Virus record (IMG/VR): IMGVR_UViG_2547132077_000004
Coordinates: 1 to 43,781 of that record
Direction: 5' to 3' (one strand)
From: a virus
Taxonomy: Duplodnaviria; Heunggongvirae; Uroviricota; Caudoviricetes
DNA: 43,781 nucleotides
Shown here: positions 2,876-43,737 of the stretch, in pieces
Numbering within the stretch: the stretch's first letter is position 1
Layout of the letters: each line of letters opens with the position of its first letter
Notes under the pieces: model-generated
Told to the model about the DNA's origin: nothing
Seen by the model: the letters and a program-made list of their open reading frames with translations, nothing else
Database searches by the model: none
Made by a program: the position numbers and the translations under genes

Positions 2876-3204
2876 CAGTTCACCACCTGTTCAAACTCTG
2901 CGCTGAACTCAACACGCAGCATACTGACCCGCGACGACCATTTTGCGCAGGTCACCTTTATCTGCCGCCACTCATAAGGCGGCGTCCACAGAAAGGATTT
3001 CCAGCCACCGTGCTCAGCCAGAAACGACTCCAGCGCCGTGGCCTCCCAACGGGGAACAGAAAGCGTCACACTGTACGTTTTCAGGTCGGCATTCAGCCCG
3101 GCAGGCGCTCGCTGGGAATAGCCATCACCAAAGCGCACCTTTCTTACGGAAGGGGCCGAAGCCACATCCATACCGGGTTTCACTTTCCAGCGGAAGGTTT
3201 TCAT
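2875..3204 (-). CDS. M: Minor tail protein M
   Basis: 109 aa, same length and position as lambda gpM; overlaps H stop and L start. Confidence 0.85.
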   Translation of the reverse strand: MKTFRWKVKPGMDVASAPSVRKVRFGDGYSQRAPAGLNADLKTYSVTLSVPRWEATALESFLAEHGGWKSFLWTPPYEWRQIKVTCAKWSSRVSMLRVEFSAEFEQVVN

Positions 3205-5762: not shown

Positions 5763-6189
5763 ACCGGACTCCTCCTGCGATCCCTTCTGAGACTGTCATC
5801 AGCATTACGTCATCCTCTGTCATATCCACCACATCCGGGGAAACGGTGATAACCTCATTCCCGTCCGGGCCAAAGCGGACGCCTCCGGCAAGCCCTGCCG
5901 CTTTCTGCATCAGCACATCATCTTCAGGCTCTTCGTCAGCCTCGCGCCGGTTCAGCAGACTGAAATCCAGCGGATGCATATCCGGATCGCTGAAAAACAG
6001 GCTGAGCACGGTATATGTCAGCCCGGAAAAGTGCATATCCAGCAGAACATCATGAAAATAATGGGTACTGTAAAAGCGGTGCCAGTCGGCATACTCCGTG
6101 GATGACATCCCGGCAAGCATGGCGCGCCAGTCGGGTCGCCCCATCTCACGCGCCAGTTTCAGGGCAAAACTCAGCTCACCGTCGAACAC
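5755..6189 (-). CDS. T: T segment of the G-T tail assembly chaperone, expressed by -1 frameshift from G
   Basis: 144-aa ORF in the -1 frame overlapping the end of G; slippery heptamer present at the junction. Confidence 0.75.
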   Translation of the reverse strand: MFDGELSFALKLAREMGRPDWRAMLAGMSSTEYADWHRFYSTHYFHDVLLDMHFSGLTYTVLSLFFSDPDMHPLDFSLLNRREADEEPEDDVLMQKAAGLAGGVRFGPDGNEVITVSPDVVDMTEDDVMLMTVSEGIAGGVRYG

Positions 6190-6593
6190 TTTCCCGCAGA
6201 AACAGGCTCTGCTGGCCCGGCGTCATCTGCCTGTTCAGGTGCATCATTCACAACAAACTCAGACATACCGGACAGACGCATTACCACATTTTCAGCCTGA
6301 GCAATTGCCTCTGTGGGCCAGGTGGTAAGCACTTCCTGCTCAATTTGTTTAACGGCTTCATTCATGGACGGCATCTTTGTCTTCTGCGGATGGCTATGCC
6401 ACAGGGACATCGCCACCAGAAAAGCACCGGTTCTGACGAGATCTTCCACGCTCACCTGTCGATTGAGACTGGATCCCGCCTGTTCTGCCTGTCGTTTCAG
6501 CAGGGCGAGATGCTCAATTCGCTGCAGGGCTGACAGTTCAGAAAGCGTGACGCTCACACCGTTATATTCAAATGATTCGGTTTTCAGGAACAT
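6171..6593 (-). CDS. G: Tail assembly chaperone G
   Basis: 140 aa, same as lambda gpG; immediately downstream of V. Confidence 0.85.
   Translation of the reverse strand: MFLKTESFEYNGVSVTLSELSALQRIEHLALLKRQAEQAGSSLNRQVSVEDLVRTGAFLVAMSLWHSHPQKTKMPSMNEAVKQIEQEVLTTWPTEAIAQAENVVMRLSGMSEFVVNDAPEQADDAGPAEPVSAGKCSTVS
6189..6195 (-). other. Programmed -1 ribosomal frameshift site (slippery heptamer GGGAAAG) joining G to T
   Basis: Reverse complement of 6189-6196 is CGGGAAAG, the canonical lambda G-T slip site, located in the G/T overlap. Confidence 0.7.
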
Positions 6594-6608
6594 CTCTGAC
6601 TCTCCGGA

Positions 6609-7379
6609 TTAACTGTCGGTGACGGTGATTTCTGCAACCACAGCAAGTTCACCATTACCGGATACAACCGGAATGTTGACCTTGCCTGCAGCAACACCTT
6701 TCACGGTGATGGTCATACCACTGACCGACACGGTGGCTTTTGTTTTATCCGCAGACACCGCACGGAAGCTCTTGTCGGTTGCGCCTTCCGGCTGGAATGC
6801 CACGGTCAGCGTGGTGCTCTGCCCTTTCACCACCGAAGTGCTGGCAGGCGTCACGGTCATGCCGGTTGCCGCTGTTACCGTGCTGCGATCTTCTGCCATC
6901 GACGGACGTCCCACGTTGGTGACTTTCACCGTGCGGGTGATCACTTCCTTCGCCGTCACCGCCTTACCGATACTGCTGACCCAGCCGCGGAACACATCGA
7001 CCGTGCCGTTCGGGAAGCGGATTTTATAGGCACGGGTATCCCCTTCATTAAACCACGCCAGCAGCGCCTGCTGCCCCTGCTCTCCGGGCATCCACGCCAG
7101 CGTGAAGCTGGTATCTCCGGCAGATTTCTGCCCCTGCCCGGTCGCAGTCCAGTCCGCATCTTCATCATCGAGATAGCTGTCGTCATAGGACTCAGCGGTC
7201 AGTTCGCCGGGCGTCAGGTCTTTAACTTTAGCCAGACGCGACCAGTCAACGTCTGAAAGCGGGTTCGCATAAGGGTCACCGTTCCCCTTATAAACCCACA
7301 GTGTGGTCCCGGCACCTTTCACCGGCATTGTTGGATTTGGTACAGGCATAGCGTCCTCACATTTCATAGGTAATGACAT
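6609..7379 (-). CDS. V: Major tail protein V with C-terminal Ig-like (Big_2-type) domain
   Basis: 256 aa; C-terminal Thr/Val-rich beta-strand segment typical of an Ig-like decoration domain; lambda position. Confidence 0.9.
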
Positions 7380-7752
7380 AAGTCAGATCAGCTGAACTCC
7401 ACAGGCCCGCATCATCATCGCGCCGGTAGTCATAACCGCTGGCCACCATACTGGTGATCAAATCTGACAGTGCCGGGATATCGCTCATCACCGGATAAAT
7501 CCGGGACTCCATCCACGCATCCAGCTCTGAATCCTGCACCTGAGCAGGCAGGAAAACTTCAATATGCAGCTCTGCCTGCCAGGTATCGCTGTCCAGCTCT
7601 TCGCCCGTGTATTCAGCGCCGGTGAGATAAACGGCAACTGCCGGAAAATCCGCCTCACCAAAAACAGCGGGGCGACCATCAAAAAGCGTCGCCCCGGTGT
7701 CATGCTTCTCCAGTGCATCCAGTACGGCTGCACGGAGTTCAGTATGTTTCAT
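7357..7752 (-). CDS. U: Tail terminator protein U
   Basis: 131 aa, same as lambda gpU; position. Confidence 0.85.
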
Positions 7753-8327
7753 CGCTTTATTACCATTCTCAGTTGATGCTGCGGCGCATAGCCCAGCTCT
7801 TTCGGAAGACGTTCACGCCGTATCCGCTCAATATTCTGTTTAAACGCCGTGGTCAGCGGCACCGCCATCGGGATTTTCACCACATCAATGGGGTAACGGT
7901 TTTTTCCGGCCACACGCTGCATAACATGCCACCAGCCATTTTTCAGTTGCTGAATAAACGCGCCGGGAATACGACGATTGCCCACCACAAGCACGCTGCC
8001 GCCACCTTTCAGGGATGAACGCTGCCCCTTTTTGCGTCGCCTGCGTCGGGACAGGACAACCCGCGCATTACCCAGCTTGATTACGGGCAAATCCCCCCGG
8101 TTAACTTTGATTCTGGCCTGCGGATTTTTGACCGTGGCCCTTTTCAGTCTGGCCCTTTCCTTTACCAGTTTCCGGCGTACCTTTGTCTCACGGGCAACCT
8201 GTGACGCCGACTGCGATATCGCGGATGAAGCAACGCGGTTAATGGCCATTGCGGTGGCACCGGGCACCGCCGTTTTGCTGATACGGCTGAGATTTTCAAC
8301 GGCCTGCTCAAGACCTTTTATGGACAT
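7749..8327 (-). CDS. Z: Tail completion protein Z
   Basis: 192 aa, same as lambda gpZ; basic Arg/Lys-rich segment; position. Confidence 0.85.
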   Translation of the reverse strand: MSIKGLEQAVENLSRISKTAVPGATAMAINRVASSAISQSASQVARETKVRRKLVKERARLKRATVKNPQARIKVNRGDLPVIKLGNARVVLSRRRRRKKGQRSSLKGGGSVLVVGNRRIPGAFIQQLKNGWWHVMQRVAGKNRYPIDVVKIPMAVPLTTAFKQNIERIRRERLPKELGYAPQHQLRMVIKR

Positions 8328-8338
8328 ACATCCCCCTT

Positions 8339-8692
8339 TCAGCGGCGACGGTTAACGGCAGGGGGCACACCCCGCCCCAGCCAGAGATGACAGCTTCCGC
8401 CATCATCCGGCGAAACCCGGTCTACCCAGAAGTTTTCCTCACCGATGGTCAGCGTGTCTCCGCGCCGCAGCTGCCGCACATCATCAGTCCGGACAAACAG
8501 GGACGGGCTGGAGCCTTCAACACGCACGCCAGGTCCGGCATAGCTGATATTTTCAGGGTCATCAAAAACACCACGTATTACTGCGCCGGACTGTTCACCG
8601 GATGTAATGGTGGCTGACGTTCCCATGTACCCGCGTATCGTTTCATCGGCGCGGGCAATGGCAGCATCGAACAGGTTATCGAAATCAGCCAC
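8339..8692 (-). CDS. FII: Head-tail joining protein FII
   Basis: 117 aa, same as lambda gpFII; position. Confidence 0.85.
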   Translation of the reverse strand: MADFDNLFDAAIARADETIRGYMGTSATITSGEQSGAVIRGVFDDPENISYAGPGVRVEGSSPSLFVRTDDVRQLRRGDTLTIGEENFWVDRVSPDDGGSCHLWLGRGVPPAVNRRR

Positions 8693-8703
8693 AGTGCCTC
8701 CCG

Positions 8704-9102
8704 TTATTGCATTCTGGCCAGGCCGCGCTCTGTCATTTCAGCTGCCACACCGGCAGAGACACGGAACGCCGTTCCCGGCAGCACAAAATCCACAGGCTCA
8801 TCCCGTGTGGCGTGAAGTGCATCGGTATGCAGCGTCACCAGTGCCACGACCGTGACCAGATCAGCCGTATCCTGAATTACGGTATCCGGCGGCTCTGATA
8901 CCACCTCATTTTCATGCCCGGTCAGCGCATTTTCCGGGCTGACAGGCGTGTCCTGGCCGGAAGTGTCATCCGAGTCATCAAGCTCCTCTTCCAGCTCTGC
9001 CACACGGAGCGCCAGTTCTTCCTTCGTCCCCGTCAGGCTGACATCACGGTTCAGTTGCTCACCCAGCACCTGAAGACGGGAAATCAGTTCATCTTTCGTC
9101 AT
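8704..9102 (-). CDS. FI: DNA packaging/head assembly protein FI
   Basis: ORF is 145 aa; an internal start at MTKDELISRLQ gives 132 aa, matching lambda gpFI; acidic linker. Confidence 0.75.
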   Translation of the reverse strand: MTKDELISRLQVLGEQLNRDVSLTGTKEELALRVAELEEELDDSDDTSGQDTPVSPENALTGHENEVVSEPPDTVIQDTADLVTVVALVTLHTDALHATRDEPVDFVLPGTAFRVSAGVAAEMTERGLARMQ

Positions 9103-9143
9103 GGACTCCTCCACAGAGAGAAAATGGCCCCGAAGGGCCATGA

Positions 9144-10169
9144 TTACGCCAGTTGTACGGACACGAACGCATCAGGGTCAGCCAGCAGCATCAGCGGTGC
9201 TGACTGAATCATGGTGAACTCACGCGCCGGATCGCCGGTGGTCACCCAGTTTTTCGGGTAGCGGGCAGAGGCGTTAATGCCTTCGCGCTGTGCGTCCGCA
9301 TCCTGAATGCAGCCATAGGTGCGCAGACCGCGTGCCTGAGTGTTCCCCAGCACCATCGTGTTGTCCGGCAGGAAGTTCTTTTTGACGTCGTTTTCCACGT
9401 ACTGTCCGGAATACACGACGATCGCCGTATCGCCATACATCCCCTTATAGGACACCGCTTCGCCCAGGTCTTTTACCGCTGTCTCCAGCTCGGAATTAGA
9501 TCCGCGACGGGTATCCAGCTTCTCCTTGACGGCTTTGAAGGAACGGAACAGCGCCCAGCCTTTCGGATCAAACACGATGATATTCACCACACCGCTGGCG
9601 TTCAGCGCATAGGCTTCGATATCGTCGGTCGGATCATACGTGGACTTGTCACGCTTGCTCCACTCCGTGCCGCCAGACTGCGTGATGTTATTCGCCGCAC
9701 TGCGGCCCATATCCACCTCAACCGGATCGAAGGCTTCACCGGTCATGGTGTATTTGCCCTTAAGCACAGCAGAAACTGCCTGCATCTCTTCGACCTGAGC
9801 AATGGCCAGCTCTTCATCACGCATGTTCTGCATGATGATGCGACGGCGGCGGTAAGCCGGGTCCGCCAGATTCTGCGGATCTTCATCCGGCAGGCGACGC
9901 AGGGTCATCTGCGGATTCACCTCATGCTTCGGCTTGACATAACCCGGCGTAAATTCAGAGGTGGAGCCGCCACGGGAACGGATAACCTCACCGGAAACAA
10001 TTGGCGAAACGTACAGCGCCATGTTTACCAGTCCAGGAATTTGTGAGAGATAGACTTTCTCCGTGGTGAAGGGATAGCTCTCACGGAAAAAGAGACGCAG
10101 AAACAGCGGATCAAACTTAAATTTCTTCTCATTTGCCGCCAGCAGCTGGGCGGTTGTGTACATCGACAT
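9144..10169 (-). CDS. E: Major capsid protein E
   Basis: From MSMYTTAQLLAANE the product is 341 aa and matches the lambda gpE sequence as I recall it; ORF track start at 10196 is an upstream extension. Confidence 0.9.
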   Translation of the reverse strand: MSMYTTAQLLAANEKKFKFDPLFLRLFFRESYPFTTEKVYLSQIPGLVNMALYVSPIVSGEVIRSRGGSTSEFTPGYVKPKHEVNPQMTLRRLPDEDPQNLADPAYRRRRIIMQNMRDEELAIAQVEEMQAVSAVLKGKYTMTGEAFDPVEVDMGRSAANNITQSGGTEWSKRDKSTYDPTDDIEAYALNASGVVNIIVFDPKGWALFRSFKAVKEKLDTRRGSNSELETAVKDLGEAVSYKGMYGDTAIVVYSGQYVENDVKKNFLPDNTMVLGNTQARGLRTYGCIQDADAQREGINASARYPKNWVTTGDPAREFTMIQSAPLMLLADPDAFVSVQLA

Positions 10170-10224
10170 AAAAAAATCCCGTAAAAAAAGCCGCACAGGC
10201 GGCCTTTAGTGATGAAGGGTCAGG

Positions 10225-10557
10225 TTAAACGATGCTGATTGCCGTTCCGGCAAACGCGGTCCGTTTTTTCGTCTCGTCGCTGGCAGCCTCCGGCCAGAGC
10301 ACATCCTCATAACGGAACGTGCCGGACTTGTAGAACGTCAGCGTGGTGCTGGTCTGGTCAGCAGCAACCGCCAGAATGCCAACGGCAGCACCGTCGGTGG
10401 TGCCATCCCACGCAACCAGCTTACGGGTGGCGGTGTCCGGCATCAGCGGGGTCATTGCAGGCGCTTTCGCACTCAATCCGCCAGGCGCGGTTGCAGTATG
10501 AGCCGGGTCACTGTTGCCCAGCGGCTGGTAATGGGTAAAGGTTTCTTTGCTCATCAT
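10225..10557 (-). CDS. D: Head decoration protein D
   Basis: 110 aa from the third Met ([12 protein letters not shown]...), near-identical to lambda gpD as I recall it. Confidence 0.9.
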
Positions 10558-10566
10558 AAACATCCC

Positions 10567-11866
10567 TTACACTGGTGTGTTCAGCAAATCGTTAACGGCA
10601 TCAGATGCAGGGTTACCTGCAGCCAGCGGTGCCGGTGCCCCCTGCATCAGACGATCCAGCGCAGTGTCACTGCGCGCCTGTGCACTCTGTGGTGCTGCGG
10701 CCAGAATGCGGCGTGCCGTTTCCACGGTCATACCGGGGGTTTCTGCCAGCACGCGTGCCTGTTCTTCGCGTCCGTGGGCCTCCTCACAATTGAGGATCCC
10801 CATGATGCGGCTGTTTTCTGCCGCAACCGCTGCGGTGATCTGCGCGTTCACGTCCGGCTGCGCCGCGCTGGCGTTTTCGCCCTCCGTCGCTGACACCACA
10901 TCAGTAACATCAGCCTGCGAAGCAGTGGCTGAAACAGTTGTTGATTGAGTCTCTTTGGTCATTCGCCCTCCTGAGAGTCGGGATTTACGTGCATCCAGTG
11001 CCTCACGCATAACGGTGATCGCATCGGTGCTGTTAACAAGTTCATCAGCCAGTCCGGCATCAATGGCCTCCTGACCGCTGTACACTGCAGCCTCGGTATC
11101 CAGAACAGCCTGCACGGACAGGCCGGTATATGCCGATACCTTCTGCGCAAACATCTGGCGGGTTGCATCCATCCGGGATTGCAGTGTTTCCCGGACGTCA
11201 TCCGGAAGATGGCTGTAGGGGTTGCCATCCACCTTATGGCTGCCGCTGTAAATCAGCGTGATTTCCACGCCCTGTTTCTCCAGCGCAGCACCGTAATTAC
11301 TGTGAGCCATCATGACGCCGATGGAGCCTGTCCGGGCGGTCTGTGTGACCAGACGCCGGGAGGCGGCACTGGCAAGCAGCTGACCTGCACTACAGTTCAT
11401 GTCGTTGGCCAGCGCCCATACCGGTTTTATGTCACGCACACGGGCGATGATGTCAGCGCAATCAAATGCCCCCGCCACCATCCCGCCTGGCGTGTCCATA
11501 TCGAGCAGAATGCCGTCCACCATCGGATCGCTGGCAGCCTGTTGCAGACGGGCGATAATGCCGTTGTAACCGGTCATCCCCGAATACGGCTGCAGCGCCC
11601 GCGTCCGGCTGACCAGCGTGCCGGACACCGGCAGCACGGCGATGCCATTCATGACCTGATAACTGCGGGCCTGTCGTGGCCCGTCATCATCACCGGATAA
11701 CGCCAGCGTCGCGGGTGACTCTCCGGCAGTCAGGCTGTCACCTGACACCGCATCCGTCAGGCGGCTTATCCCAATTTGGCCTGCAAGCGCACAAAAGAAA
11801 ACCCGCGCATAGGCGGGTTCAAGCATCAGCGGCTCATTAAAGGCCATGCTGGCAATATGCGGGAGA

Positions 11867-11886
<20 letters not shown>
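10567..11886 (-). CDS. C: Head protease/scaffold C (ClpP/S49-like) with nested Nu3 scaffold frame
   Basis: Matches lambda gpC over its length; start inferred at a GTG (V-TAELRNLPHIASMAF...) giving 439 aa; the ORF track ATG at 12021 is an in-frame upstream extension overlapping B. Confidence 0.85.
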
Positions 11887-15567
<3,681 letters not shown>

Positions 15568-15593
<26 letters not shown>

Positions 15594-26095: not shown

Positions 26096-27622
26096 TCAAA
26101 AATAAACCTCACCATCAACCATATATTTGAGAGTACTTATCGCCTGCTGGGCGGATATTGTTTTCATTAAAGGATAGTGTTTAAAAACAATGCCATTCAT
26201 AAAATAGATATCACAGGTTTTATTATCTGTATTGATTATGATTTTTTCGAATGTTTTATAGGCAAGTGTACGACATAGCTCTCGCCCATTTTTACTGGTT
26301 AAGTCAATAGCATGAAAATCACCAAGTGAACTCACCGCTTTACTCTTCAAAGTTTTTAATGATACAGAAGCCCTTCGTAATTCCTTATCTAATACTCTGA
26401 TTTTTTCTGCTATAGCGGTAACTTCAGGCGCAACAGATAATGCAGCAATTAAATTATTAATTTTCATCTGGAGCTCAATAATTTTCAACTCTAAAGTTTC
26501 ATTAGCATCTTTCTTGTTTTCAACTGGTTGGATTTTACTACAATTAAAAAGCAACTCATTAATGATATTATAATCAACCAAATCTCTCTTTATTGATGGC
26601 CTGTCACATCGATGCAGTCTTCTCATCGGACAAACATAATAGCCATACAAACTTCCAGATACCGCATGAACAATCATGGTATTACCACAAGCCTCGCACT
26701 TCATAACTGTTCGAAGTAGATTTATCAACATAGGATTTTTGCTACTATTGCTAATACCAAAAGGTGCCAACCGAATTTCCTGTACAGCGTAAAACAAATC
26801 ATCTGATATGACTCTGGGATAATAGCCAGCGATTTCACTTATTCCTTTACCTCTTGCACGATATGAAGGTACGCATATACCTATCAGAGCTTTATTCGCT
26901 AATAATTTTTCAATTACAGAAGGTCCCCATGCACTTTCTTTTCCTGAGAAATTCTTTACAGCATGATCATTTAAATACTTGGCTATTGCATTCAATGAGC
27001 GCCTTTCCATCCTGAGTTTAAAAATTAGCTCAATAGTTTTCACCCTGTCGGGGTCTGGAACAAAAGCCGTTCTTTTGTCATCTAAGGAGAGCCATCTCGG
27101 ACAAGACGCCGTCATAATCGTACCTGATTCCAGTGCATCCTGCCGTTTTTTCTTCCATGATAATTTAACCCGACTTGACTTTATCTCGCTTTCTTCATTT
27201 GCCCTTTGTGCTATAAGTATGGCTTTTATTAATGAATATGGCTCATTCAAAGAGTCAATATTATAGACTGTATTGTCGCAAAGAGTTATAACATCAATAC
27301 CGTGATTCAAAATCAATTTCAGACGTTCAATCGCTTCACCGACTTTTTCTCTTGAAAGTCTGTCCAGACTTTCAACTAACAATGTAGTTCCTGGCAATAT
27401 ATAACCATGCTCTATAGCATCTAAAAATTCCGAAAAAGCTCCTGATTGTGCATGCTTTCCTTTGAATGCACTTAATCCTAAATCTTCATATGTTATGGTA
27501 TCAAGATAATAATCACTATTTACCTTTAACCATTCAGCAATAAGTCTTCTCTGTCGGTTTAATGAGTCGCCAGACATCTGACCTGGTGATGAAAATCGCA
27601 TATATGCTATGGCTTTTTTCAT
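26096..27622 (-). CDS. Large serine recombinase (YbcK-like)
   Basis: 508 aa; N-terminal resolvase catalytic domain (IAYMRFSSPGQ, nucleophile Ser), recombinase domain, Cys-rich zinc-ribbon (CEACGN...C..C) and C-terminal coiled coil; AT-rich. Confidence 0.8.
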   Translation of the reverse strand: MKKAIAYMRFSSPGQMSGDSLNRQRRLIAEWLKVNSDYYLDTITYEDLGLSAFKGKHAQSGAFSEFLDAIEHGYILPGTTLLVESLDRLSREKVGEAIERLKLILNHGIDVITLCDNTVYNIDSLNEPYSLIKAILIAQRANEESEIKSSRVKLSWKKKRQDALESGTIMTASCPRWLSLDDKRTAFVPDPDRVKTIELIFKLRMERRSLNAIAKYLNDHAVKNFSGKESAWGPSVIEKLLANKALIGICVPSYRARGKGISEIAGYYPRVISDDLFYAVQEIRLAPFGISNSSKNPMLINLLRTVMKCEACGNTMIVHAVSGSLYGYYVCPMRRLHRCDRPSIKRDLVDYNIINELLFNCSKIQPVENKKDANETLELKIIELQMKINNLIAALSVAPEVTAIAEKIRVLDKELRRASVSLKTLKSKAVSSLGDFHAIDLTSKNGRELCRTLAYKTFEKIIINTDNKTCDIYFMNGIVFKHYPLMKTISAQQAISTLKYMVDGEVYF

Positions 27623-27878: not shown

Positions 27879-28211
27879 TTAATGTGGTGTGCTTCGTGAC
27901 AATAAATTAATAACCAACACACCGGCACAAATCAACATCATGCCTATAATGGCTGGCAGGTCCAGCCGTTGGCCGAAAAGTCCCCATGACAGTAAGCTAA
28001 TCAGGACAATACCGACTCCTGACCAGATAGCATAAGCAATCCCTGTAGGAATATAAGCCAGCGTCTGAGCTAATAACCAGAATGATGCACAATAACAAAT
28101 AATTGTACCAACAGATGGCCATAACCGTGTAAAACCTTCTGAAAACTTCATTAAGGTTGTACCAATGACCTCTGCAAGTATTGCACCACCAAGATAAATA
28201 TAAGGGTTCAT
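27879..28211 (-). CDS. emrE: Small multidrug resistance (SMR) efflux protein EmrE
   Basis: 110 aa from MNPYIYLGGAILAEVIGTTLMKFSEGF, with the conserved membrane-embedded Glu; near-identical to E. coli EmrE as I recall it. The ORF-track start at 28265 is an upstream extension. Confidence 0.9.
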   Translation of the reverse strand: MNPYIYLGGAILAEVIGTTLMKFSEGFTRLWPSVGTIICYCASFWLLAQTLAYIPTGIAYAIWSGVGIVLISLLSWGLFGQRLDLPAIIGMMLICAGVLVINLLSRSTPH

Positions 28212-28278
28212 AGAATATTCTTTCCTGTTCAAACTGGAGAGAATTGTACTACAGTTTGAACTCAACTCACCTGTTTCA

Positions 28279-34719: not shown

Positions 34720-35964
34720 ATGAACGAGGCAGCAATAATTATTGTCCCAACAGACATCAGCAAGAAAATTCGCGAAATAGAAGAGTCCTACAACAGATAT
34801 ATAAATGAATTTCGCATCCCTAATGATCATAAGATAATCGTGAATTATTCAGCAGGAAAAGACAGCACTGCCACACTCGCAGTGGCGCACACATTATTCG
34901 GCAAACAGGTACATGCTGTTATGGCAGACACGGATAATGAGCATAATCTAACTGTCGAATTCGCCAGGAGCATTCATGAGCAGATCGGTTGTAGCCCTGT
35001 GCAGGTTGTGAAGCGGATTTACACTGAAGAAGATTTTGCCAAACGACGAATTTATCTGCAAAAAAACTGGTCTAAACGACAGATGATCCGCATGGGAGCA
35101 TACCGTGGCATAGTCATGCCTTCCCTCGCACGTTCTGACACCAAATTCGGGCAAGCCTGGAAGCGCACAGCAGAACGCTGGGGAATTGAGTTCGAAACTG
35201 CTCTTGATGCTGCGCTTTCCGTTATGCACCCATCCGGTAATAGCTTTTTGGATTGCTCCCTTCTGCATGGCAAGTTCCCTATGCTGCGCGACCGATTCTG
35301 TACAGACGAACTGAAAATTCAGATAGCTTTCGACGCAGCCATAAAGCCGCTCCTTGATGCTGGCGATGTTATCGTACAATGGTCTGGTGTTCGCGCGGAT
35401 GAGTCCTCTAAGCGCGCTGGATATGAGAGGTTTTCCCGCGATATGCGCGACGCCGATTTTCTCTACAACTTCCTGCCGCTCCACAAATGGACGGCTGAGG
35501 ACGTATTCGCAGTTCACAAATATTTCGGAATTAAGCCAAATCCACTTTATATGCAAGGTGCGTCTCGTGTTGGCTGCATGAATTGCGTGCTATGCAACAA
35601 AGAGGAAATTGCAGAGACGGCTGCGCGCTGGCCAGAGCACATCAAAAAGCACAAACAATGGGAGTTGAAGGTACGCCTTGCTAGTAGATGGGTACACTGG
35701 ATGAGCGTAGGAGAGATAAGCCAACGCTGGATGAAACAGTTCAATCTGCCACTTGGTCGAAATATTCAACTTTTTGGGCTAAAACCTGATGTGCAACACA
35801 TCGACTGGTCAGGATTTTATGGTCCTCGTGGAGATCTTAATTCTCCGGGTGTTTATGAAGTCGTAGAGTGGGCAAAAACAGGGCGCGGTGGCAAGGTCTA
35901 CGATCTTGTAAAAGCAAGTCTCGATATAGAGGTTTGCTCTTCACGCTACGGTCTGTGCGAATAA
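34720..35964 (+). CDS. PAPS-reductase-like (PP-loop ATP-pyrophosphatase superfamily) protein with Cys-rich C-terminal extension
   Basis: 414 aa; PP-loop motif (IIVNYSAGKDSTATLAVAH) near the N-terminus; C-terminal CMNCVLC cluster; same strand as the early-left operon. Confidence 0.65.
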   Translation: MNEAAIIIVPTDISKKIREIEESYNRYINEFRIPNDHKIIVNYSAGKDSTATLAVAHTLFGKQVHAVMADTDNEHNLTVEFARSIHEQIGCSPVQVVKRIYTEEDFAKRRIYLQKNWSKRQMIRMGAYRGIVMPSLARSDTKFGQAWKRTAERWGIEFETALDAALSVMHPSGNSFLDCSLLHGKFPMLRDRFCTDELKIQIAFDAAIKPLLDAGDVIVQWSGVRADESSKRAGYERFSRDMRDADFLYNFLPLHKWTAEDVFAVHKYFGIKPNPLYMQGASRVGCMNCVLCNKEEIAETAARWPEHIKKHKQWELKVRLASRWVHWMSVGEISQRWMKQFNLPLGRNIQLFGLKPDVQHIDWSGFYGPRGDLNSPGVYEVVEWAKTGRGGKVYDLVKASLDIEVCSSRYGLCE

Positions 35965-35975
35965 TACTAAGTTAT

Positions 35976-36578
35976 TTACTCATTATTTTTTGATAATACA
36001 ACTTTCTGCCAAGTTATCTGGTTACGTTGAAAACTATCTTTATTTATTGACGTAACTCGCAATGTTTTCAGACCTAACTGAGACGCTAACTCAAGAAGTT
36101 CCTCAGTATTAACAACGTTAATGTTTCTATCTGGTTCGGGAGGTCCTAAGCGCAATGTAATTATCATTCTCCCATTCAATGTTAAAAGATCAGTTAGCGT
36201 CTCTAGTGAGATTTTTTGCTCTTTTTTTGAAAGATGCATCCATACAGCACTGACTAAAATAAGGTCGAACTTTAGATTCATTGCTTTAACACTATGAAGA
36301 AAAGGCAATGAATCATCTAACCATATAATATGGTTAGATTTATAATATGAAGATGCCAAATTTCGCATCTTTTCACTTGGTTCAACAGCTATTACTTTAT
36401 AACCTAATTCATCTAACGCAGCAGCATCACGGCCGGAACCTGAACCGACATCCAAAGAGACACCCTTAGATTGTAAAATAAACTCTTCAACATCCTGAAA
36501 GATAGAGTAAAAATCAAGTGATATATAATCGGCAAATAAGCGATCAGCATTATTGTCATAAAACTTCCACGAAGTCAC
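35976..36578 (-). CDS. Class I SAM-dependent methyltransferase (small, TehB-like architecture)
   Basis: 200 aa; motif I (LDVGSGSGRDAAALDELGYKVIAVE) and motif post-I/II (FDLILVSAVWMHL); AT-rich; start overlaps the upstream gene by 4 nt. Confidence 0.7.
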   Translation of the reverse strand: MTSWKFYDNNADRLFADYISLDFYSIFQDVEEFILQSKGVSLDVGSGSGRDAAALDELGYKVIAVEPSEKMRNLASSYYKSNHIIWLDDSLPFLHSVKAMNLKFDLILVSAVWMHLSKKEQKISLETLTDLLTLNGRMIITLRLGPPEPDRNINVVNTEELLELASQLGLKTLRVTSINKDSFQRNQITWQKVVLSKNNE

Positions 36579-37207
36579 TTTGATAATCCTGATTTTGCTT
36601 CGATAAATAATCCTGACTCAATATTTTTAATTGTTGCTTTGTATGTATTATGTGAAATGTCTTTTGAAAACAAGTTTGGATGATATACCCCAGCAATATT
36701 AACAAAGAAGCAAACAATAAGCATTACTGCCCAGCACGACACTACTATGTAACCAGTTTCCTTATTATCATAGCTAGAGGGCAATTTAAATCCAGCGTCT
36801 CTAGTAATTTCATTTAAAATATAGTTTTTTGAAGGATCTTCAATGTTTTTTTGTAGTGCTATTTTCGAACCAATTAAAGACCTTAAGCGATAAAGTGTAA
36901 TCATTGTTGTGAAATCAAACAATGCTAACACTGCAAAGATAATCCATAGGGAACTTTCATTTGCCAGTGTTGTTGCATACCACAACCCACCATTGACAGC
37001 AATTACGAAACTAGGGATTTGCCACATGAGCTGATTTAAAGCCCGCATGTGTTGTCCTGCTTCAAGATAAGTAATCTCCTGCAGCTTCTGATACCAACGG
37101 ATTGCCTCAATTTTTAGATTTTCGTTAATCTGTTGCTGTTGCTGATTTACCATGTAATCCCTGCTCAACGAACTGAAACTTTTAATGATGCTATCACAAC
37201 TTATCAA
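36575..37207 (-). CDS. Predicted integral membrane protein (three hydrophobic helices), unknown family
   Basis: 210 aa; soluble N-terminal about 60 aa (poly-Gln QQQQQ) then helices IPSFVIAVNGGLWYATTL, LWIIFAVLALFDFTTMITLY, GYIVVSCWAVMLIVCFFVNIAGVY; translationally coupled to the methyltransferase. Confidence 0.55.
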   Translation of the reverse strand: MISCDSIIKSFSSLSRDYMVNQQQQQINENLKIEAIRWYQKLQEITYLEAGQHMRALNQLMWQIPSFVIAVNGGLWYATTLANESSLWIIFAVLALFDFTTMITLYRLRSLIGSKIALQKNIEDPSKNYILNEITRDAGFKLPSSYDNKETGYIVVSCWAVMLIVCFFVNIAGVYHPNLFSKDISHNTYKATIKNIESGLFIEAKSGLSK

Positions 37208-37787: not shown

Positions 37788-38066
37788 ATGTTCAGAATCA
37801 TTTTTCCTAACACCTGGTACGTCGACCACCACGGCACTCCCTGCAAAATCCTGCGTTCTACCCACAACAAAGTTCACTACATCCGAAAAGGCAGAACATG
37901 TATCGCCAGCATGTTCCGCTTTAATCATGACTTTGAACCTGTGAATAAAGCTGATGCAGATCGGATAGCAGAAGAGATCGAAACGGCAGAACACATTAAG
38001 AAGTTACGTGACATGCGTTCAAAAAGCAGAGGTAACCATGGAATCATACAGCCTCACACTCGATGA
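37788..38066 (+). CDS. Hypothetical small phage protein
   Basis: 92-aa ORF between the TraR-like gene and xis; no recognisable motif. Confidence 0.35.
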   Translation: MFRIIFPNTWYVDHHGTPCKILRSTHNKVHYIRKGRTCIASMFRFNHDFEPVNKADADRIAEEIETAEHIKKLRDMRSKSRGNHGIIQPHTR

Positions 38067-38482
38067 GGCCTGCCAGCTTCTCAAGATATCCAGACCTACA
38101 GCAATCATGTCAATCCAATAAATGGAGACTCCAAGTGGAAGAAGAAATCTTCACTCGTGAAGAGGCTGCGTCGTATCTGAAGGTAGACAAAGGCACTATC
38201 ACGCAGTGGATACGAAGTGGACGACTTCAAGCCGCAAAGATAAATCCAGATAAACCTAAAAGCCCATATCGCATTTGCAAGTCAGACTGCATTGCGGCGC
38301 TTAAGTCTGTGAGACACAATAGCGCGGTGAATGCGGTTGATGTGCAGGAGGTTAAAGCATGTCAATCAAACTGCGCGGTGGCACATGGCACTGCGATTTC
38401 GTCGCGCCAGATGGATCAAGAGTTAGACGCTCTCTTGAAACATCGGACAAGAGGCAAGCGCAAGAACTTCACGATCGTCTGA
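38063..38482 (+). CDS. xis: Excisionase/AlpA-like HTH protein (start uncertain; overlaps int)
   Basis: HTH segment FTREEAASYLKVDKGTITQWIRSGRL immediately upstream of int; the ORF overlaps int by 124 nt in another frame, so the true start, or an alternative start codon, is unresolved. Confidence 0.5.
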   Translation: MRPASFSRYPDLQQSCQSNKWRLQVEEEIFTREEAASYLKVDKGTITQWIRSGRLQAAKINPDKPKSPYRICKSDCIAALKSVRHNSAVNAVDVQEVKACQSNCAVAHGTAISSRQMDQELDALLKHRTRGKRKNFTIV

Positions 38483-39519
38483 AAGCAGAAGCGTGGAGAG
38501 TAAAAAATCTCGGTGAATCACCGAAAAAGCTATTCAAGGAAGCCTGCATACGGTGGCTGCGAGAGAAAGCGGATAAGAAGTCCATTGATGATGACAAGAG
38601 CATTATATCGTTCTGGATGTTGCACTTCAGAGAAACCATTCTCTCTGACATAACAACAGAAAAAATAATGGAGGCGGTAGACGGGATGGAAAACCGCCGC
38701 CATCGCCTGAACTGGGAGATGAGCCGGGATAGGTGTTTGCGGCTTGGCAAGCCAGTGCCGGAGTATAAACCAAAGCTGGCAAGCAAAGGAACGAAGACGC
38801 GGCATCTGGCAATACTTCGCGCTATTCTCAATATGGCTGTTGAATGGGGATGGCTTGACAGGGCGCCCAAAATATCAACACCACGCGTTAAGAATGGACG
38901 AATCAGATGGCTTACAGAGGAGGAATCGAAGCGCCTGTTTGCAGAAATTGCTCCTCATTTCTTCCCTGTGGTCATGTTTGCAATCACGACAGGCCTTCGT
39001 CGTTCCAACGTTACAGACCTTGAGTGGTCACAGGTCGATCTGGATAAGAAAATGGCATGGATGCACCCTGATGAAACAAAAGCTGGCAATGCGATCGGAG
39101 TTCCTCTTAACGAAACCGCATGCCAGATATTAAGAAAACAGCAGGGGCTCCATAAGAGATGGGTATTTGTCCACACCAAACCTGCCTACCGAAGCGACGG
39201 AACAAAAACAGCAGCGGTAAGGAAGATGAGAACCGACAGCAACAAGGCATGGAAGGGAGCGTTAAAGCGGGCAGGCATTAGCAACTTCCGCTTCCATGAC
39301 CTGAGGCATACCTGGGCAAGCTGGCTGGTTCAGTCCGGTGTCTCTCTTCTTGCACTTAAAGAGATGGGAGGATGGGAAACTCTCGAAATGGTTCAAAGAT
39401 ACGCCCACCTTTCAGCCGGGCATCTCACCGAGCACGCGAGCAAAATCGATGCGATTATAAGTCGCAATGGCACAAATACGGCACAAGAGGAGAACGTAGT
39501 TTACTTAAATGCGAGGTAA
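38359..39519 (+). CDS. int: Tyrosine integrase
   Basis: 386 aa; C-terminal catalytic signature (HDLRHTWASWLVQSGVSLLALKEMGGWETLEMVQRYAHL) with R..HxxR..Y; ends 15 bp from the att core. Confidence 0.9.
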   Translation: MSIKLRGGTWHCDFVAPDGSRVRRSLETSDKRQAQELHDRLKAEAWRVKNLGESPKKLFKEACIRWLREKADKKSIDDDKSIISFWMLHFRETILSDITTEKIMEAVDGMENRRHRLNWEMSRDRCLRLGKPVPEYKPKLASKGTKTRHLAILRAILNMAVEWGWLDRAPKISTPRVKNGRIRWLTEEESKRLFAEIAPHFFPVVMFAITTGLRRSNVTDLEWSQVDLDKKMAWMHPDETKAGNAIGVPLNETACQILRKQQGLHKRWVFVHTKPAYRSDGTKTAAVRKMRTDSNKAWKGALKRAGISNFRFHDLRHTWASWLVQSGVSLLALKEMGGWETLEMVQRYAHLSAGHLTEHASKIDAIISRNGTNTAQEENVVYLNAR

Positions 39520-39533
39520 CTTATTGATTTAGA

Positions 39534-39579
39534 TGGTGCCGATAATAGGAGTCGAACCTACGACCTTCGCATTACGAAT
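39534..39579 (-). other. Attachment-site core: 3'-terminal about 46 nt of a tRNA-Thr(CGU) gene (thrW-like), isolated, no 5' half adjacent
   Basis: Minus strand reads TTCGTAATGCGAAGGTCGTAGGTTCGACTCCTATTATCGGCACCA: anticodon loop with CGT, T-arm GTAGG-TTCGACT-CCTAT, acceptor 3' strand and CCA. The sequence to the right does not continue as D-arm or 5' acceptor stem. The thrW match is from memory. Confidence 0.7.
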
Positions 39580-40065
39580 TATAAGAATCCGCTTCTAATT
39601 CAAAGCATTACCCCATCAACACTGCGCTCACACGTCCCACCACATCAAAACATGTAAAGCCTTGCAAGTCATTGCGAGGCCTTATGTGTCTCAGTTTTGT
39701 CCCACCTTGTATTACGACTTGCATAGCCAATGAAGATAAATGTGACAACAAACGGCGCAGCAGTCTTCTTTTCCTTCATACTTTCCCCACCCAGCATGCA
39801 TACCTTCTACCATAACTGTAGTGAATGTGTTATGAGCGAGATGCGGACATTGGCAGCCTCAACAACATGACTGGCATTGAGGCGTATTAATCAGTGGGGA
39901 GCAGGTCACGCCATCTATAATGGAAAACGTGCTGGTGACCTGCCGATACTCAGTCTCAGGCAGCGAATACAATTACACATAGTTCGAAAAATATGTTAGC
40001 GCAACCAGTGATATCCGCGGCTTTCTCTGGAAAAATGTGTTAGTTTCTCTAAGCCATGTCCATTG

Positions 40066-41001
40066 CTAAAATAGGTATTCTTTTATTCTGTAAAAATCGG
40101 ATATTTTCTCAAGCGCTGATGTAGGAATGGTTTTTTTGTTTATACTCAAACCTGTTTGTGTATTTTTTAGTTCTGCGATAATGTATTCATCATCAATATA
40201 ATCCTCTCTCTCTCCAATGAAGTTTATTATGAATTCTTTTGCTTTTAAAGCTTTTGTGATGTGATATTTTTCATTGAATAGAATATACACTTTGAAAATA
40301 GAATTGATGTGCTCATTAAAAATCGGCATTATTGGGAAAGATTCATCCATCTGTGTCAGGTCAGTCTTTACCTGACTCCCCCACTTAGAAAATCCACGAA
40401 TCAATTCATCTCTCATGAAATATACGATTAACTCTACAATTAAAGTACTACTGGTTTCATCAAGTGATTTTGATATCGTGTACGAAAGTGGTGGCATTCC
40501 ACAATGCTGAACAAAATTTCTGAGCTTATACATGAATCTATATGAAAACTTGCTATCAAATTCATTTCCCGTCAGCGTTTTAAACTCGACAAATTCCGTT
40601 GAATTAGCCCCATACCTCCTGTTAATACTGGTTTCCATATGGTCAAGTAAAGTTTTCACTGACATCATATAGTTCAGTATTCTTGTATTTAAAAAGAATT
40701 TGAAGGTTTTGAAGGGATATGAACCAATAAAAGAAGGTTCTTCGGCTACTTTTTTAACCGTTTCATCCAGAAGTTCCATTAGTGACTCATAGTTCAATCT
40801 TACATATTCTACTAAGGCAAAATCATTCACAAACTCCATAAGTATATTTTTTTGTGTATCATACACTTCAATTTCCTCATTACTAAGGGGTCTTATTTCA
40901 TTTATCTCGTTTACTTCACTTCCATCTGAAATTGATTCTTTAGCAAGGATTATAGTGGATTCGCTCAAGCTTATCTCCCTGATTAATTTTCTGTTAATCA
41001 A
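40066..41001 (-). CDS. Hypothetical protein, strongly AT-rich, unknown family
   Basis: 311-aa ORF, Asn/Lys/Ile/Glu/Phe-rich, divergent from the DUF262/DUF1524 gene across a 585-bp intergenic region. Confidence 0.45.
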   Translation of the reverse strand: MINRKLIREISLSESTIILAKESISDGSEVNEINEIRPLSNEEIEVYDTQKNILMEFVNDFALVEYVRLNYESLMELLDETVKKVAEEPSFIGSYPFKTFKFFLNTRILNYMMSVKTLLDHMETSINRRYGANSTEFVEFKTLTGNEFDSKFSYRFMYKLRNFVQHCGMPPLSYTISKSLDETSSTLIVELIVYFMRDELIRGFSKWGSQVKTDLTQMDESFPIMPIFNEHINSIFKVYILFNEKYHITKALKAKEFIINFIGEREDYIDDEYIIAELKNTQTGLSINKKTIPTSALEKISDFYRIKEYLF

Positions 41002-41586
41002 TATGGAACCCTAAAAGAGCACACTTGATCTGTATTATATCGGCTTAAGTTGCCAAGAATAGCCCCATCTTGATCAATATAATAAGTTTTTTATTCCCCT
41101 CTGACCCTGCATACCACCAATGTCTGTTCCTGGCACTTAGCAGCCCTAGAGACAGTGGCGTAAAGTCATGGAGGAGCGGTGGGAGGAGGTGCAAATCCTC
41201 TCATACAAAAAATACGTAAAATCGATAACGGCTTGACATAATTCAATACTAGCACTATCGGAAGTTCACCAGCCAGCCGCAGCTGACTATTGTATACGAC
41301 ATGTCTGCAGCTTCAATACCCGATAGTGCCATCTACAATGATTTAGCAGCGCTTGGATAAAAAAACAGCAGCAACAATGTGCTAACAATCTCGAAAAAAC
41401 ACCGACGCAATGGAGAACAGACAAAAGAGAATATCCAATGAAACCGTAGCACGTCAGCATTCAAAAGCGGGATTTCTCGTTTTTACTTCACCAGCAACAA
41501 ATACACTGTATCATGACTACATAAAAATGATTATTCTGACTCAGATGAATTTCTTACTCTTGTGGAATGTCACTTATAGGTAAACA

Positions 41587-43476
41587 ATGAAATCCGAAAC
41601 GCTAACCATCCAGCAACTTTTCCAAAATCAACGACAATATCGTGTTCCATTCTATCAACGTGCCTACGTATGGACGCAACAAAACCAATGGTCAGCTTTG
41701 CTGGAGGATATCTTCGAAAAAGCACATAGCCGACTTTTGGGAACAAAACCAACTCCCCATTTCCTTGGCGCGGTGGTGCTGGAACCTCAACTCAAAAACA
41801 GCTTGTTAGGTGTAGATACCATACATATTATTGACGGCCAGCAACGTTTAACCACTCTTCAATATATTCTGGCATCCATTCGATTATCATTGCGTGCTAC
41901 AGGCCTTTCTGATTTGGAAGGGTTAGTATTGACTTGCTTGAAAAATACAAACGAAGCAACTATGCGAAATAAAAAGGTAGAATGCTTCAAACTGTGGCCA
42001 ACTTTTCGAGACCAAACTCATTTTATTCAAAGTTTTAATGTTGAAAACATTGACGATCTCCGTGATGTATTTTCTGATAGCTTCACGCAACATGGTACGT
42101 TACGTAAACATTTCAACCACCCGCCGTCACTAGAGGCATTATGGTTTTTTACTGAAGCCTTTATAAAATGGATTAAAATAGAAAAGTACTCACCACATGA
42201 AAATGCTGTAGCACTAATTGAGGCTGTCTTGACGGATCTGAAACTGGTAAGCATATTTCTCGAAGCTGAAGATGATGCCCAAATAATTTTTGAAACATTA
42301 AATGGCCGAGGGGCGGAACTTCATGCCACGGATCTTATTCGCAACTACATCTTTATGTGCGCTGAGCATGAAAATATTAATGCTATTGAATTATATGAAA
42401 ATGAATGGAAGAGCTTTGAAGATACATACTGGTCGGAAAGGCAACGCCGTGGACGTATTAATAAACCACGCATGGAGTGGCTAGTGCATGCGACATTGCA
42501 ATCAGAAAGGCAACGTGAAATTGATCTGTCTCGTCTTTACAATGAGTATCGTGATTATGTAAGTAAGGACTTGCCTTCACAACGAGCTGATCTGCAAGTA
42601 AAGCGCCTCAAACAATATGCATCACAATATAAAGAATTAGTTGGTGGTTTTGGCACAACCCCCATCTCACACTTTGGACATCGCATCGCAGCCTATGATG
42701 TGACGACACTTTATCCGCTTGCTTTGTTCATTTCGATAGCTAATATCGCCGATGATGAGAAAGCAGCCATGTATAATGATCTTGTCTCCTACGTAGTACG
42801 AAGAGCCGTATGTGGCCTGACGCCAAAGAATTACAACAATGTATTTATGAATGTATTGCGGCACTTGTCTAAAACGGAAATTTCCAGTGTTGAGTTACGT
42901 AATATCCTCAATAGCTTAAATGGCGAAGCCTCACGTTGGCCTGGTGACTCAGAATTTCTCAATGCTTGCATCAATGCTCCACTTTATCCTGGCAGGCTCG
43001 ACGCACCGAAAATGCGCTCAATGTTAACGGAACTTGAAAGAGAACTTTGTCGCCAAGTGAAGACAGAGAAGCCTGATGTTCCAAATCTTTCCAATCTCGA
43101 TATCGATCATCTTATGCCTCAAAGTTGGTATTCCTGTTGGCCTCTCGAAAATGGTCATATGGTGACAAATTCAGATGCAACGGTATTGAACCAAATTGTT
43201 CTGTCTGGAACAGATCTTACCCCTGAGCAGCTACTGGTAAGGAAACGGCAACAAGCGATAGCTACGTTGGGAAATCTAACTTTGCTTAACCTTAGCGTAA
43301 ACCGTTCTGTTCAGAATGCTGTATTTCTGAAAAAACGTGATGCTCTCATCGTCCACACCAATCTACGACTGAACATACCACTTATACTTAAGGATAAATG
43401 GGATGAGGGTGAAATCCTGAAGCGGGGTAAAAAGTTGGGGGAAATTGCATTGAAAGTATGGCCAAAACACGATTAA
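41587..43476 (+). CDS. DUF262 (ParB-like NTPase) + DUF1524 (His-Me finger nuclease) protein, GmrSD-family type IV restriction enzyme-like
   Basis: 629 aa; N-terminal YRVPFYQRAYVWT and IIDGQQRLTTLQ (DUF262 DGQQR motif); C-terminal LDIDHLMPQSW ... LGNLTLLNLSVNRSVQN (DUF1524-like). Confidence 0.75.
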   Translation: MKSETLTIQQLFQNQRQYRVPFYQRAYVWTQQNQWSALLEDIFEKAHSRLLGTKPTPHFLGAVVLEPQLKNSLLGVDTIHIIDGQQRLTTLQYILASIRLSLRATGLSDLEGLVLTCLKNTNEATMRNKKVECFKLWPTFRDQTHFIQSFNVENIDDLRDVFSDSFTQHGTLRKHFNHPPSLEALWFFTEAFIKWIKIEKYSPHENAVALIEAVLTDLKLVSIFLEAEDDAQIIFETLNGRGAELHATDLIRNYIFMCAEHENINAIELYENEWKSFEDTYWSERQRRGRINKPRMEWLVHATLQSERQREIDLSRLYNEYRDYVSKDLPSQRADLQVKRLKQYASQYKELVGGFGTTPISHFGHRIAAYDVTTLYPLALFISIANIADDEKAAMYNDLVSYVVRRAVCGLTPKNYNNVFMNVLRHLSKTEISSVELRNILNSLNGEASRWPGDSEFLNACINAPLYPGRLDAPKMRSMLTELERELCRQVKTEKPDVPNLSNLDIDHLMPQSWYSCWPLENGHMVTNSDATVLNQIVLSGTDLTPEQLLVRKRQQAIATLGNLTLLNLSVNRSVQNAVFLKKRDALIVHTNLRLNIPLILKDKWDEGEILKRGKKLGEIALKVWPKHD

Positions 43477-43509: not shown

Positions 43510-43737
43510 TTAGTAAGGCCACAACTCACTATTAAATCCTTTAATTTGCATCAAGAACAGCAGTGTCAGCCCTAGGCTCTCGGACTTTGTACCGCTTATC
43601 TTGTCTTCAAAAATCAGCTCGCATCCTGCACAGTTCAACGCATTACGTTGTAGATCGATTTTCTGGTCATTTGTTGATACGAAAACATAGCCAATAAGCA
43701 TGGTAGCTCCCTCTGACAAAAGCAGGAATGATGCCAT
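43510..43737 (-). pseudogene. Truncated serine recombinase (resolvase/invertase family), N-terminal fragment
   Basis: MLIGYVFVSTNDQKIDLQRNALNCAGCELIFEDKISG matches the small serine recombinase catalytic N-terminus (nucleophile Ser in VSTNDQ), but the frame ends after 75 aa. Confidence 0.55.

Follow-up and report, generated by a model that had tools for sequence, protein, structure and literature searches.

A 46-bp thrW core as the probable seam between two different prophages in Escherichia fergusonii ECD227

Introduction

What does it mean when the 3' part of a tRNA gene is found on its own next to a phage integrase? In a stretch of 43,781 nucleotides from IMG/VR (record IMGVR_UViG_2547132077_000004, here called the window and analysed over its whole length), a 46-nt piece of a tRNA-Thr gene follows directly on the integrase of a lambda-type prophage, with DNA of much lower GC content on its other side. 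Such a fragment could be the intact attP of a single phage, the product of a faulty assembly, or the junction of two elements that occupy the same tRNA gene.

The record CM001142.1 (GCA_000191665.1) encodes the exact GmrSD restriction protein of the window, in the window's gene order. This record is that of Escherichia fergusonii ECD227 (PMC4424284). In it, 100 N follow directly on the window's last base, a scaffold gap that lies 4.2 kb to the right of the core, which makes the window a whole draft contig. It starts inside a lambda-J-like gene and stops at an invertase crossover-type repeat. Since the last 26 nt of the contig are identical to the pinE-side edge of the invertible segment of e14, it is at this crossover-type repeat that the assembly broke. 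The rmlA/rmlD/rmlB-galF-wca genes that come next in CM001142.1 were considered as right-hand neighbours and rejected, because they lie beyond the 100 N and belong to another locus.

Results and discussion

The 46-bp core

The core occupies positions 39534–39579, and its plus-strand letters are TGGTGCCGATAATAGGAGTCGAACCTACGACCTTCGCATTACGAAT. Read as the reverse complement, they are the last 46 nt of thrW (tRNA-Thr CGU) of E. coli K-12. The identity is 46/46 to thrW nt 31–76, on the minus strand, so that a preliminary description of this DNA, made from the letters alone, had read the fragment correctly. The exact match in K-12 lies at 1402–1447 of the extracted locus L003, within an annotated tRNA at 1372–1447. 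The core spans the last base of the 5' anticodon-stem strand, the CGU anticodon loop, and everything from there through to the CCA. It is present once in the window with up to 3 mismatches allowed, and shuffled sequences gave no match.

The 5' half of the tRNA does not follow. The letters at 39580–39610 (TATAAGAATCCGC...) are unlike the thrW 5' half, GCGCTGCTCTACCAACTGAGCTATATCGGC, which comes after the same core in relatives (alignment A1), among them the comparator L014 and K-12 itself. ARAGORN found no complete tRNA gene in the whole window, and in particular none over 39534–39620; there was likewise no match to the tRNA model, or to any other Rfam family, at the gathering score over the same length. 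The fragment is therefore an isolated one, as had been proposed.

The core adjoins an integrase and an excisionase, and its 46/46 identity places it with the thrW att cores of P22/SfX-family tyrosine-integrase phages. The spacer from the int stop codon to the core is 14 nt. The preliminary description had it right that the two adjoin and was out by one base in the distance, given as 15 bp, which is trivial. The records of phages HK446, mEp213, HK542 and mEpX2, whose int-xis-att region is 98.4–98.8% identical to that of the window, mark an attP or attachment site at the core sequence, and several records of phages of this kind (type A, defined below) describe the attP as 'similar to thrW and ptwF'. 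In E. coli K-12 a second copy of the 46 bases is found at the far end of CP4-6, at the position of ptwF.

The sequences that resemble the window change exactly at the two edges of the core, at 39533/39534 and 39579/39580. Homology to type-A phages on the left ends exactly at 39579 in all the matches listed, and homology on the right to the arms of type-B prophages begins at 39533/39534. The core is thus an isolated copy with a different element on each side, which is what is expected of a tandem array made up of unlike phages.

The left-hand prophage

That the left-hand element is a lambdoid prophage, as first suggested, is borne out by its gene content. The morphogenesis module of a lambda-type siphovirus takes up positions 2–15593 on the minus strand, with PHROGs matches (E-values 1e-83 to 0) to J, I, K, L, tape measure (3201–5762, minus strand), major tail, major head, portal and large terminase genes. 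The central tail fibre gene J (ORF 2–799, minus strand) is cut by the contig end, leaving the N-terminal 266 aa. Positions 1–3339 match the tail genes of phage phi458 at 96% identity. The prophage also has a cI-like repressor and O-/P-like replication genes, which match those called in close relatives, together with Gam/RecT/YqaJ.

At its right-hand end, on the plus strand, an excisionase gene (38063–38482; Pfam HTH_17, 7e-09) overlaps the start of a gene for a 386-aa tyrosine integrase (38359–39519; Pfam Phage_integrase, 9e-35). The equivalent of the first ORF is annotated as excisionase in HK446, mEp213 and HK75. Among the matches listed, the int-xis-att region is 98.4–98.8% identical in nucleotide sequence to those of HK446, mEp213, mEp043, HK542, HK75, mEpX2, ECP1 and SfX, the match to the SfX int record being 98.8%.

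An identical Int protein is encoded in many assemblies. In 8 of the 10 contexts listed it is followed by proA, proB and phoE, and in both of those eight that were scanned (L014 and L016) ARAGORN places an intact thrW 14 nt after int. The order int-thrW-proA-proB is that of the canonical prophage, either single or proximal to the tRNA. For a tRNA on the minus strand, an isolated core had been argued to mark a boundary, and the comparison agrees: int adjoins the intact tRNA in these eight contexts, and foreign DNA in the window. The other two contexts deviate in different ways. One (L023) runs from int and core into a P4-type integrase and a CP4-6-like island. The other (L020, CP057458.1) runs from int and core into an accessory arm, a GmrSD homologue, tail fibres and a Mu-like baseplate.

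Some further features of the left-hand prophage may be recorded here. Its nin region holds a low-GC block (0.35). There a 508-aa large serine recombinase with Resolvase, Recombinase and Zn_ribbon_recom domains is encoded at 26096–27622 on the minus strand; it is intact, and a second recombinase within the prophage. Beside it, at 27879–28265 on the same strand, is a small multidrug pump of the SMR family, and the two resemble the emrE-ybcK pair of the K-12 prophage DLP12. Where close relatives have a Dam methylase, in the interval from the recombination genes to xis, the window's prophage and phi458 carry another cassette. In the window this consists of a 414-aa protein with a PAPS-reductase domain (34720–35964, plus strand; PADLOC similarity to SspD, BrxP and DndC), a SAM methyltransferase (35976–36578, minus strand) and a 210-aa protein without family (36575–37207, minus strand). 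The genes at 34720–37207 may form a DNA-modification or counter-defence cassette.

The right-hand element

To the right of the core the GC content falls to 0.33–0.41 at 40–43 kb, from 0.47–0.48 over 38001–40000 (the two 1-kb bins that contain the integrase) and 0.53–0.60 in the structural genes. The DNA begins with a conserved P' arm of about 270 nt (39580–39853, plus strand), which is 99.5–99.9% identical to those of prophages with Mu-like tails and 89–90% identical to the distal arm of phi458. A hypothetical accessory gene of 311 aa follows on the minus strand (40066–41001; phrog_30874 at 8e-18), the product of which matches no Pfam or PADLOC family. Next comes a 629-aa type IV (modification-dependent) restriction enzyme of the GmrSD family (41587–43476, plus strand), with Pfam matches to GmrSD_N (6e-34) and GmrSD_C (1e-18) and a match to PADLOC mREase_IV over its full length (1479 bits).

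The last gene of the window (43510–43737, minus strand) is a 75-aa ORF that matches positions 2–52 of the 145 in the Pfam Resolvase profile, and the preliminary description had rightly seen in it a decayed serine recombinase with only the N-terminal part of the domain. It is the remnant of a tail-fibre DNA invertase of the Pin/Din family. BLASTP against PinE of K-12 gives 43/61 identities, with similarity lost after residue 42 or so, and the remnant keeps only about the first 42 residues; the RefSeq label of the equivalent gene is 'recombinase family protein, incomplete'. At the very end of the contig (43756–43781, plus strand) is a crossover-type repeat of an invertase, a 26-mer identical to one that in e14 lies 55 nt upstream of pinE. 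The e14 copy is at 5606–5631 of the extracted K-12 e14 locus L032, at the edge of the invertible (P) segment. Because e14, read in the other direction, has a matching gene order (tail fibres, pinE, mcrA, att), the recombinase remnant is a component of a tail-fibre switch and not an integration enzyme. A Pin-type invertase with its crossover repeat next to tail-fibre genes is a mark of e14/SfV-like phages with Mu-like tails, and the right-hand element has the remnant of the one and an exact copy of the other.

The comparator from E. coli PT62 (L001), in which the adjacent Pin gene is truncated, showed no inverted second copy of the 26-nt crossover sequence within 3 mismatches. Either the partner repeat has diverged further than this, or the invertible segment no longer inverts. 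In this prophage family the tail-fibre switch may be frozen, or it may use an invertase supplied in trans.

The whole of 39534–43781 matches, at 99.5–99.9% identity, DNA in the chromosomes of many E. coli strains, where it likewise starts at the thrW core and includes the hypothetical gene, the GmrSD gene and the shortened recombinase. In every other flank that is visible, the arm continues into tail-fibre and tail-fibre-assembly genes, and then, where the contig reaches so far, into a Mu-like module (Mu_Gp48, Baseplate_J, GP46, Gp45, tape measure, tube and sheath). Mu-like tail genes with their own type-B int by thrW are present in the comparators L001, L002/L024, L004 and L006–L012; in ECD227 such genes, and the intact thrW, would lie past the end of the contig. 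From these sequence matches we take the right arm to be the att-proximal accessory arm of another prophage and not an independent island. The idea of a second AT-rich element thus holds for the base composition and not for the separate nature of the element. Its near-identity to many other genomes makes an e14/SfV-like phage with a contractile, Mu-like tail the most likely identity of the right-hand prophage.

The arrangement of the genes does not establish this. We at first read Pin and tail fibres as the mark of a myovirus, and so as a sign of two phages, and dropped that argument, in favour of the arm repeats described below, since phi458, a siphovirus, has such an arm. Phage phi458 has a type-B arm and a Pin remnant, so that the tail type of the right-hand element has to be judged from near-identity. 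It is quite improbable, but should be weighed, that the array is tandem and its right-hand member is a decayed remnant, or a lambda-type phage resembling phi458, in which case thrW might be far nearer than 40 kb. The Pin gene is indeed already shortened, array members commonly decay at thrW (as shown by type-A int genes truncated by insertion sequences, and by a 68-nt fossil discussed below), and type-B arms do occur on siphoviruses, namely phi458. Against this, the same shortened Pin is found in full-length Mu-tailed prophages, and the other contexts with an identical GmrSD and a visible right flank lead to tail fibres and, where the contig is long enough, to a Mu-like tail.

A closely related observation concerns the lambda-like Jouyvirus phages. 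Lambda_2E9 (L026, 6001–7464), ev207, 1H12 and Perceval contain DNA about 89% identical to parts of 39645–41200 of the window, including the gene at 40066–41001. It is situated just beyond their attP, even though their integrase and att core differ. The att-proximal accessory slot would thus appear to swap cargo among phages with different integration sites.

Arm repeats of types A and B

The two sides of the core differ in the short repeats that they carry. On the left, inside the 3' end of int, is a pair GGCACAA-N4-GGCACAA (39469–39486, plus strand), at −65 and −54 from the core. On the right, the P' arm has GTCCCA at 39634–39639 and 39699–39704 (plus strand), that is at +55 and +120. Alignments of att regions (A1 and A2) and a motif map distinguish two types of arm. 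In type A, which includes the window Int, HK446, mEp213, HK75, ECP1, L014 and L023, the repeat is GGCACAA, at −65 and −54 in the P arm and at +66/67 and +118/119 in the P' arm, with a GTCACAA at +107/108. In type B, seen in the Mu-tailed prophage of LH13-b and in phi458, it is GTCCCA, at −65 and −54 in the P arm and +55 and +120 in the P' arm. The GGCACAA pair is at constant positions in all type-A int genes, and type-B int genes have GTCCCA exactly there. The type-B Int of LH13-b is 57% identical to the window Int.

The cognate P' arm of type A was taken from the attP of free phages and from the distal core of the prophage L023. It reads CTGTAGCACCAATCATAAC..., is about 235 nt long, is conserved among the listed free phages that have the window Int, and is unlike the right arm of the window; it contains no GTCCCA. 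Over the whole window, on both strands, GGCACAA occurs 7 times and GTCCCA 9 times. Since the repeats covary with the type of integrase at four positions, in both arms, we take them as arm-type Int-binding sites, a role which this covariation makes probable.

Every cognate attP or pair of prophage ends that we examined is A/A or B/B. The window and L020 have A on the left and B on the right, and the window thus lacks the cognate repeats on both arms that the intact attP of one phage would have. A left arm of type A with a right arm of type B points to a seam between two prophages and not to the attP of one phage. We conclude that the 46-bp fragment is very probably the att core common to two different temperate phages, lying head-to-tail at thrW of E. 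fergusonii ECD227. The tandem array with a shared core that had been suggested for this locus is borne out both by the mismatched arms and by the switch of homology partners at both core edges.

The arms also bear on a serious competing idea, that one lambda-like phage has this junction as its intact attP and is present as an excised or episomal genome or as a tandem double lysogen, with the ends of the contig joined through J, stf and the invertible segment. The order int, att, accessory arm, pin, tail fibres, J follows the vegetative map of lambda/Rac-type phages; phi458, itself of lambda type and related to the left-hand prophage, has a similar arm with a Pin remnant; and the window together with some 5 kb of absent J and fibre genes would make a genome of lambda size. 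Because phi458 combines arm and Pin on a siphovirus, architecture by itself cannot separate two prophages from one attP. Nevertheless, we regard a single phage as extremely unlikely. The arms of the window are non-cognate, whereas the attP sequences and end-pairs examined are all A/A or B/B, and the listed free phages with the window Int share a different P' arm of about 235 nt. The right arm is 99.5–99.9% identical to Mu-tailed prophages as against 89% to phi458. Finally, a double lysogen, or a mixture of attP, attL and attR, would be expected to make the contig branch at the core, but it reads straight through.

The same seam in other genomes

If the junction is real, it might be expected elsewhere. 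The finished chromosome CP057458.1 (L020), compared over +/-10 kb around the seam, has the same hybrid A/B seam, followed by a Mu-like baseplate. It agrees with the window base for base on the left of the junction, and to about 98% over the first 260 nt on the right. The hybrid A/B junction is also present in 5 IMG/VR contigs, all of them short prophage fragments from isolate genomes. Tail-fibre genes lie on the right in all 4 that were examined, and one (L035) reaches Mu-like baseplate genes. In two (L034 and L035) the type-A int is cut off by IS911, and in two others (L033 and L036) it is reduced to its 3' 790 nt, beside sequence that was judged by eye to be IS66-like.

These findings speak to the possibility of an assembly chimera, in which the draft assembly joined the int-core of one prophage to the core-arm of another, non-adjacent one, through the 46-bp repeat. 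The sequence comes from a draft scaffold of 2011 that has 100-N gaps, and such a genome would hold at least 3 copies of the core together with about 18 nt of similar left flank. The identical hybrid seam in a finished chromosome and in five independent IMG/VR contigs makes a chimera very unlikely. In addition, a 46-bp repeat is shorter than the reads of long-read pyrosequencing, the method probably used for the ECD227 genome.

Cognate junctions were found in the same way. The A/A junction occurs in 10 contigs, including all 7 complete reference phage genomes with this Int. The B/B junction occurs in 2, both running on into a Mu-like baseplate, so that a type-B int, a type-B arm and a Mu-like tail belong to one phage genome. 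These two IMG/VR contigs (L048 and L049) are short and come from isolate genomes; they could represent circular or replicating phage DNA in the culture, or double lysogens of the same phage.

The A-then-B pairing is uncommon. The seam, whether that of the window or that of L020, was found in none of 5,426 RefSeq complete E. coli genomes, and in none of the species-representative genomes.

Proposed mechanism

On the basis of these observations, we propose that two prophages meet at the core. The one on the left, a complete lambda-type siphovirus prophage, has a type-A integrase and reaches the core with its int-proximal end. The one on the right would have a type-B integrase and reach it with its int-distal end, which comprises a defence/accessory arm and then a tail-fibre inversion switch. 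Both integrases would exchange strands within the 3' sequence of thrW. Each integration would duplicate the core, regenerating thrW and leaving an isolated core at the opposite end, and any copy of the core, borne on the tRNA or isolated, could then serve as attB for the next phage. Because both integrases are taken to cut the same thrW 3' sequence and the core is duplicated, the seam would read P arm (A), core, P' arm (B).

From such a seam the lambda-type prophage would take its P arm when it excises, and the type-B prophage its P' arm. Loss of the lambda-type prophage would leave flank, core and P' arm (B), and loss of the type-B prophage would restore int next to thrW, as in L014. Each prophage is probably still able to excise alone using its own pair of arms, and the seam itself should be unable to act as attP for either integrase. 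By analogy with the related arrays, an intact thrW or a further core is predicted about 40 kb to the right. Either of the two prophages may have been the first to arrive.

More tentatively, and with rather less than even confidence, we suggest that the two integrase lineages, which are 57% identical, have kept the thrW core and diverged in arm specificity (GGCACAA as against GTCCCA, on equivalent helical positions), so that a mixed seam is inert and each phage excises cleanly by itself, and that the arrays age by decay of their distal members. If this is true, a built-in insulation would let one tRNA site stack several active phages, and the 'chromosomal' flank of CP4-6 in K-12 would be the scar of an ancient type-A prophage.

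Comparison with known systems

The closest parallel is the pair SfI and SfX in Shigella flexneri. SfI entered at the tRNA-bearing junction of a resident SfX, and the att copy between them was sequenced (Sun et al., 2011, BMC Microbiol 11:269, PMC3306764). As in the window, two different temperate phages adjoin at the thrW core; their array is bounded by proA on one side and by the distal flank on the other, and att copies stand at both ends and between the phages (PMC3306764). SfX moreover has essentially the int of the window. SfI and SfX differ from the window pair in being serotype-converting phages combined in the laboratory, with gtr genes in the accessory arm (PMC3306764), whereas the pair in E. 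fergusonii is natural, has GmrSD in its accessory arm, and has a lambda-type siphovirus as its distal member. The seam is thus a further natural example of tandem occupancy of thrW, which has already been documented.

The thrW/CP4-6/ptwF locus of K-12 resembles that of the window in having the same 46-bp core, with an intact thrW and an isolated distal copy that bound the integrated DNA, and 'type CP4-6' is the label given to attP in the records of sequenced phages with the window's int. CP4-6 differs in that it is a decayed island whose distal end carries an integrase of the P4 type (intF), whereas the window has a seam between two prophages of lambdoid organisation with P22/SfX-type integrases.

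The e14 prophage resembles the right arm in the order of its stfE/tfaE inversion switch, pinE, type IV restriction enzyme (mcrA) and att. The 26-nt crossover-type sequence is identical, and the N-terminus of Pin is 70% identical. In contrast to the right arm, e14 integrates in icd with another integrase, has mcrA instead of GmrSD, and has an intact pinE.

Phage phi458 (OP434518.1) has a type-B int and arms, and shares the first 270 nt or so of the P' arm with the window (89–90%). It is related to the left-hand prophage as well, with tail genes 96% and an early region 98.7% identical, and it has its own Pin remnant and tail fibres. It differs from the window in its cognate B/B ends and in being the single occupant between thrW and the chromosomal flank, as follows from its record, which runs from an int-side core to a second core.

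For annotation, the practical point is that an isolated tRNA 3' fragment beside an integrase should be taken as a seam between stacked elements and not as the end of a prophage; tools that call prophages would otherwise merge the two phages or set their bounds wrongly. Comparing the arm repeats (A/A or B/B as against A/B) is a quick test, needing nothing more than sequence, for telling an attP from a prophage–prophage junction at thrW, and it could be extended to other tRNA sites with multiple occupants. GmrSD lies in the att-proximal slot that holds mcrA in e14 and gtr in the Shigella phages, which is consistent with this slot being a swap site for genes that benefit the host. The current understanding of site-specific integration is unchanged; the covariation of the arm repeats and the decay series described below are modest by-products.

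Arrays and relics at thrW

Other genomes have longer arrays, with up to 4 copies of the core in some E. coli genomes. Outer core copies are seen in two analogues of the window, LH13-b and L023. The array of LH13-b consists of a fossil, a core, a type-B prophage, a core and a CP4-6-like island, the prophage being distal to the island. The type-B prophage measures 40,028 bp from its distal core to the core that adjoins its own 372-aa integrase. In E. coli PT62 the order is P4-like satellite, core, type-B prophage.

The P4-like satellite is distal to the core and type-B arm in PT62 (L001, 1–11836) and likewise in L006 and L013. Its genes include a primase of the P4 family, Psu, Ogr/Delta, Ash, AlpA and an integrase of its own. 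The arrays at thrW can therefore stack a satellite, a prophage of the helper type and a CP4-6-like island.

Distal type-A elements can be arranged as a series of increasing decay, from a full prophage through int only and half of int to a 68-nt relic by ptwF. This relic, a degenerate 3' end of a type-A int of about 68 nt, lies just outside the distal thrW core, on the ptwF side, in K-12 (~297,255–297,325), in LH13-b (L002, 12001–12068) and in the host of phi458 (L027, 44314–44381), and can be compared with 39465–39533 of the window. One GGCACAA is left in it, at −64, and it appears to be what remains of an ancient type-A prophage once distal to the present array.
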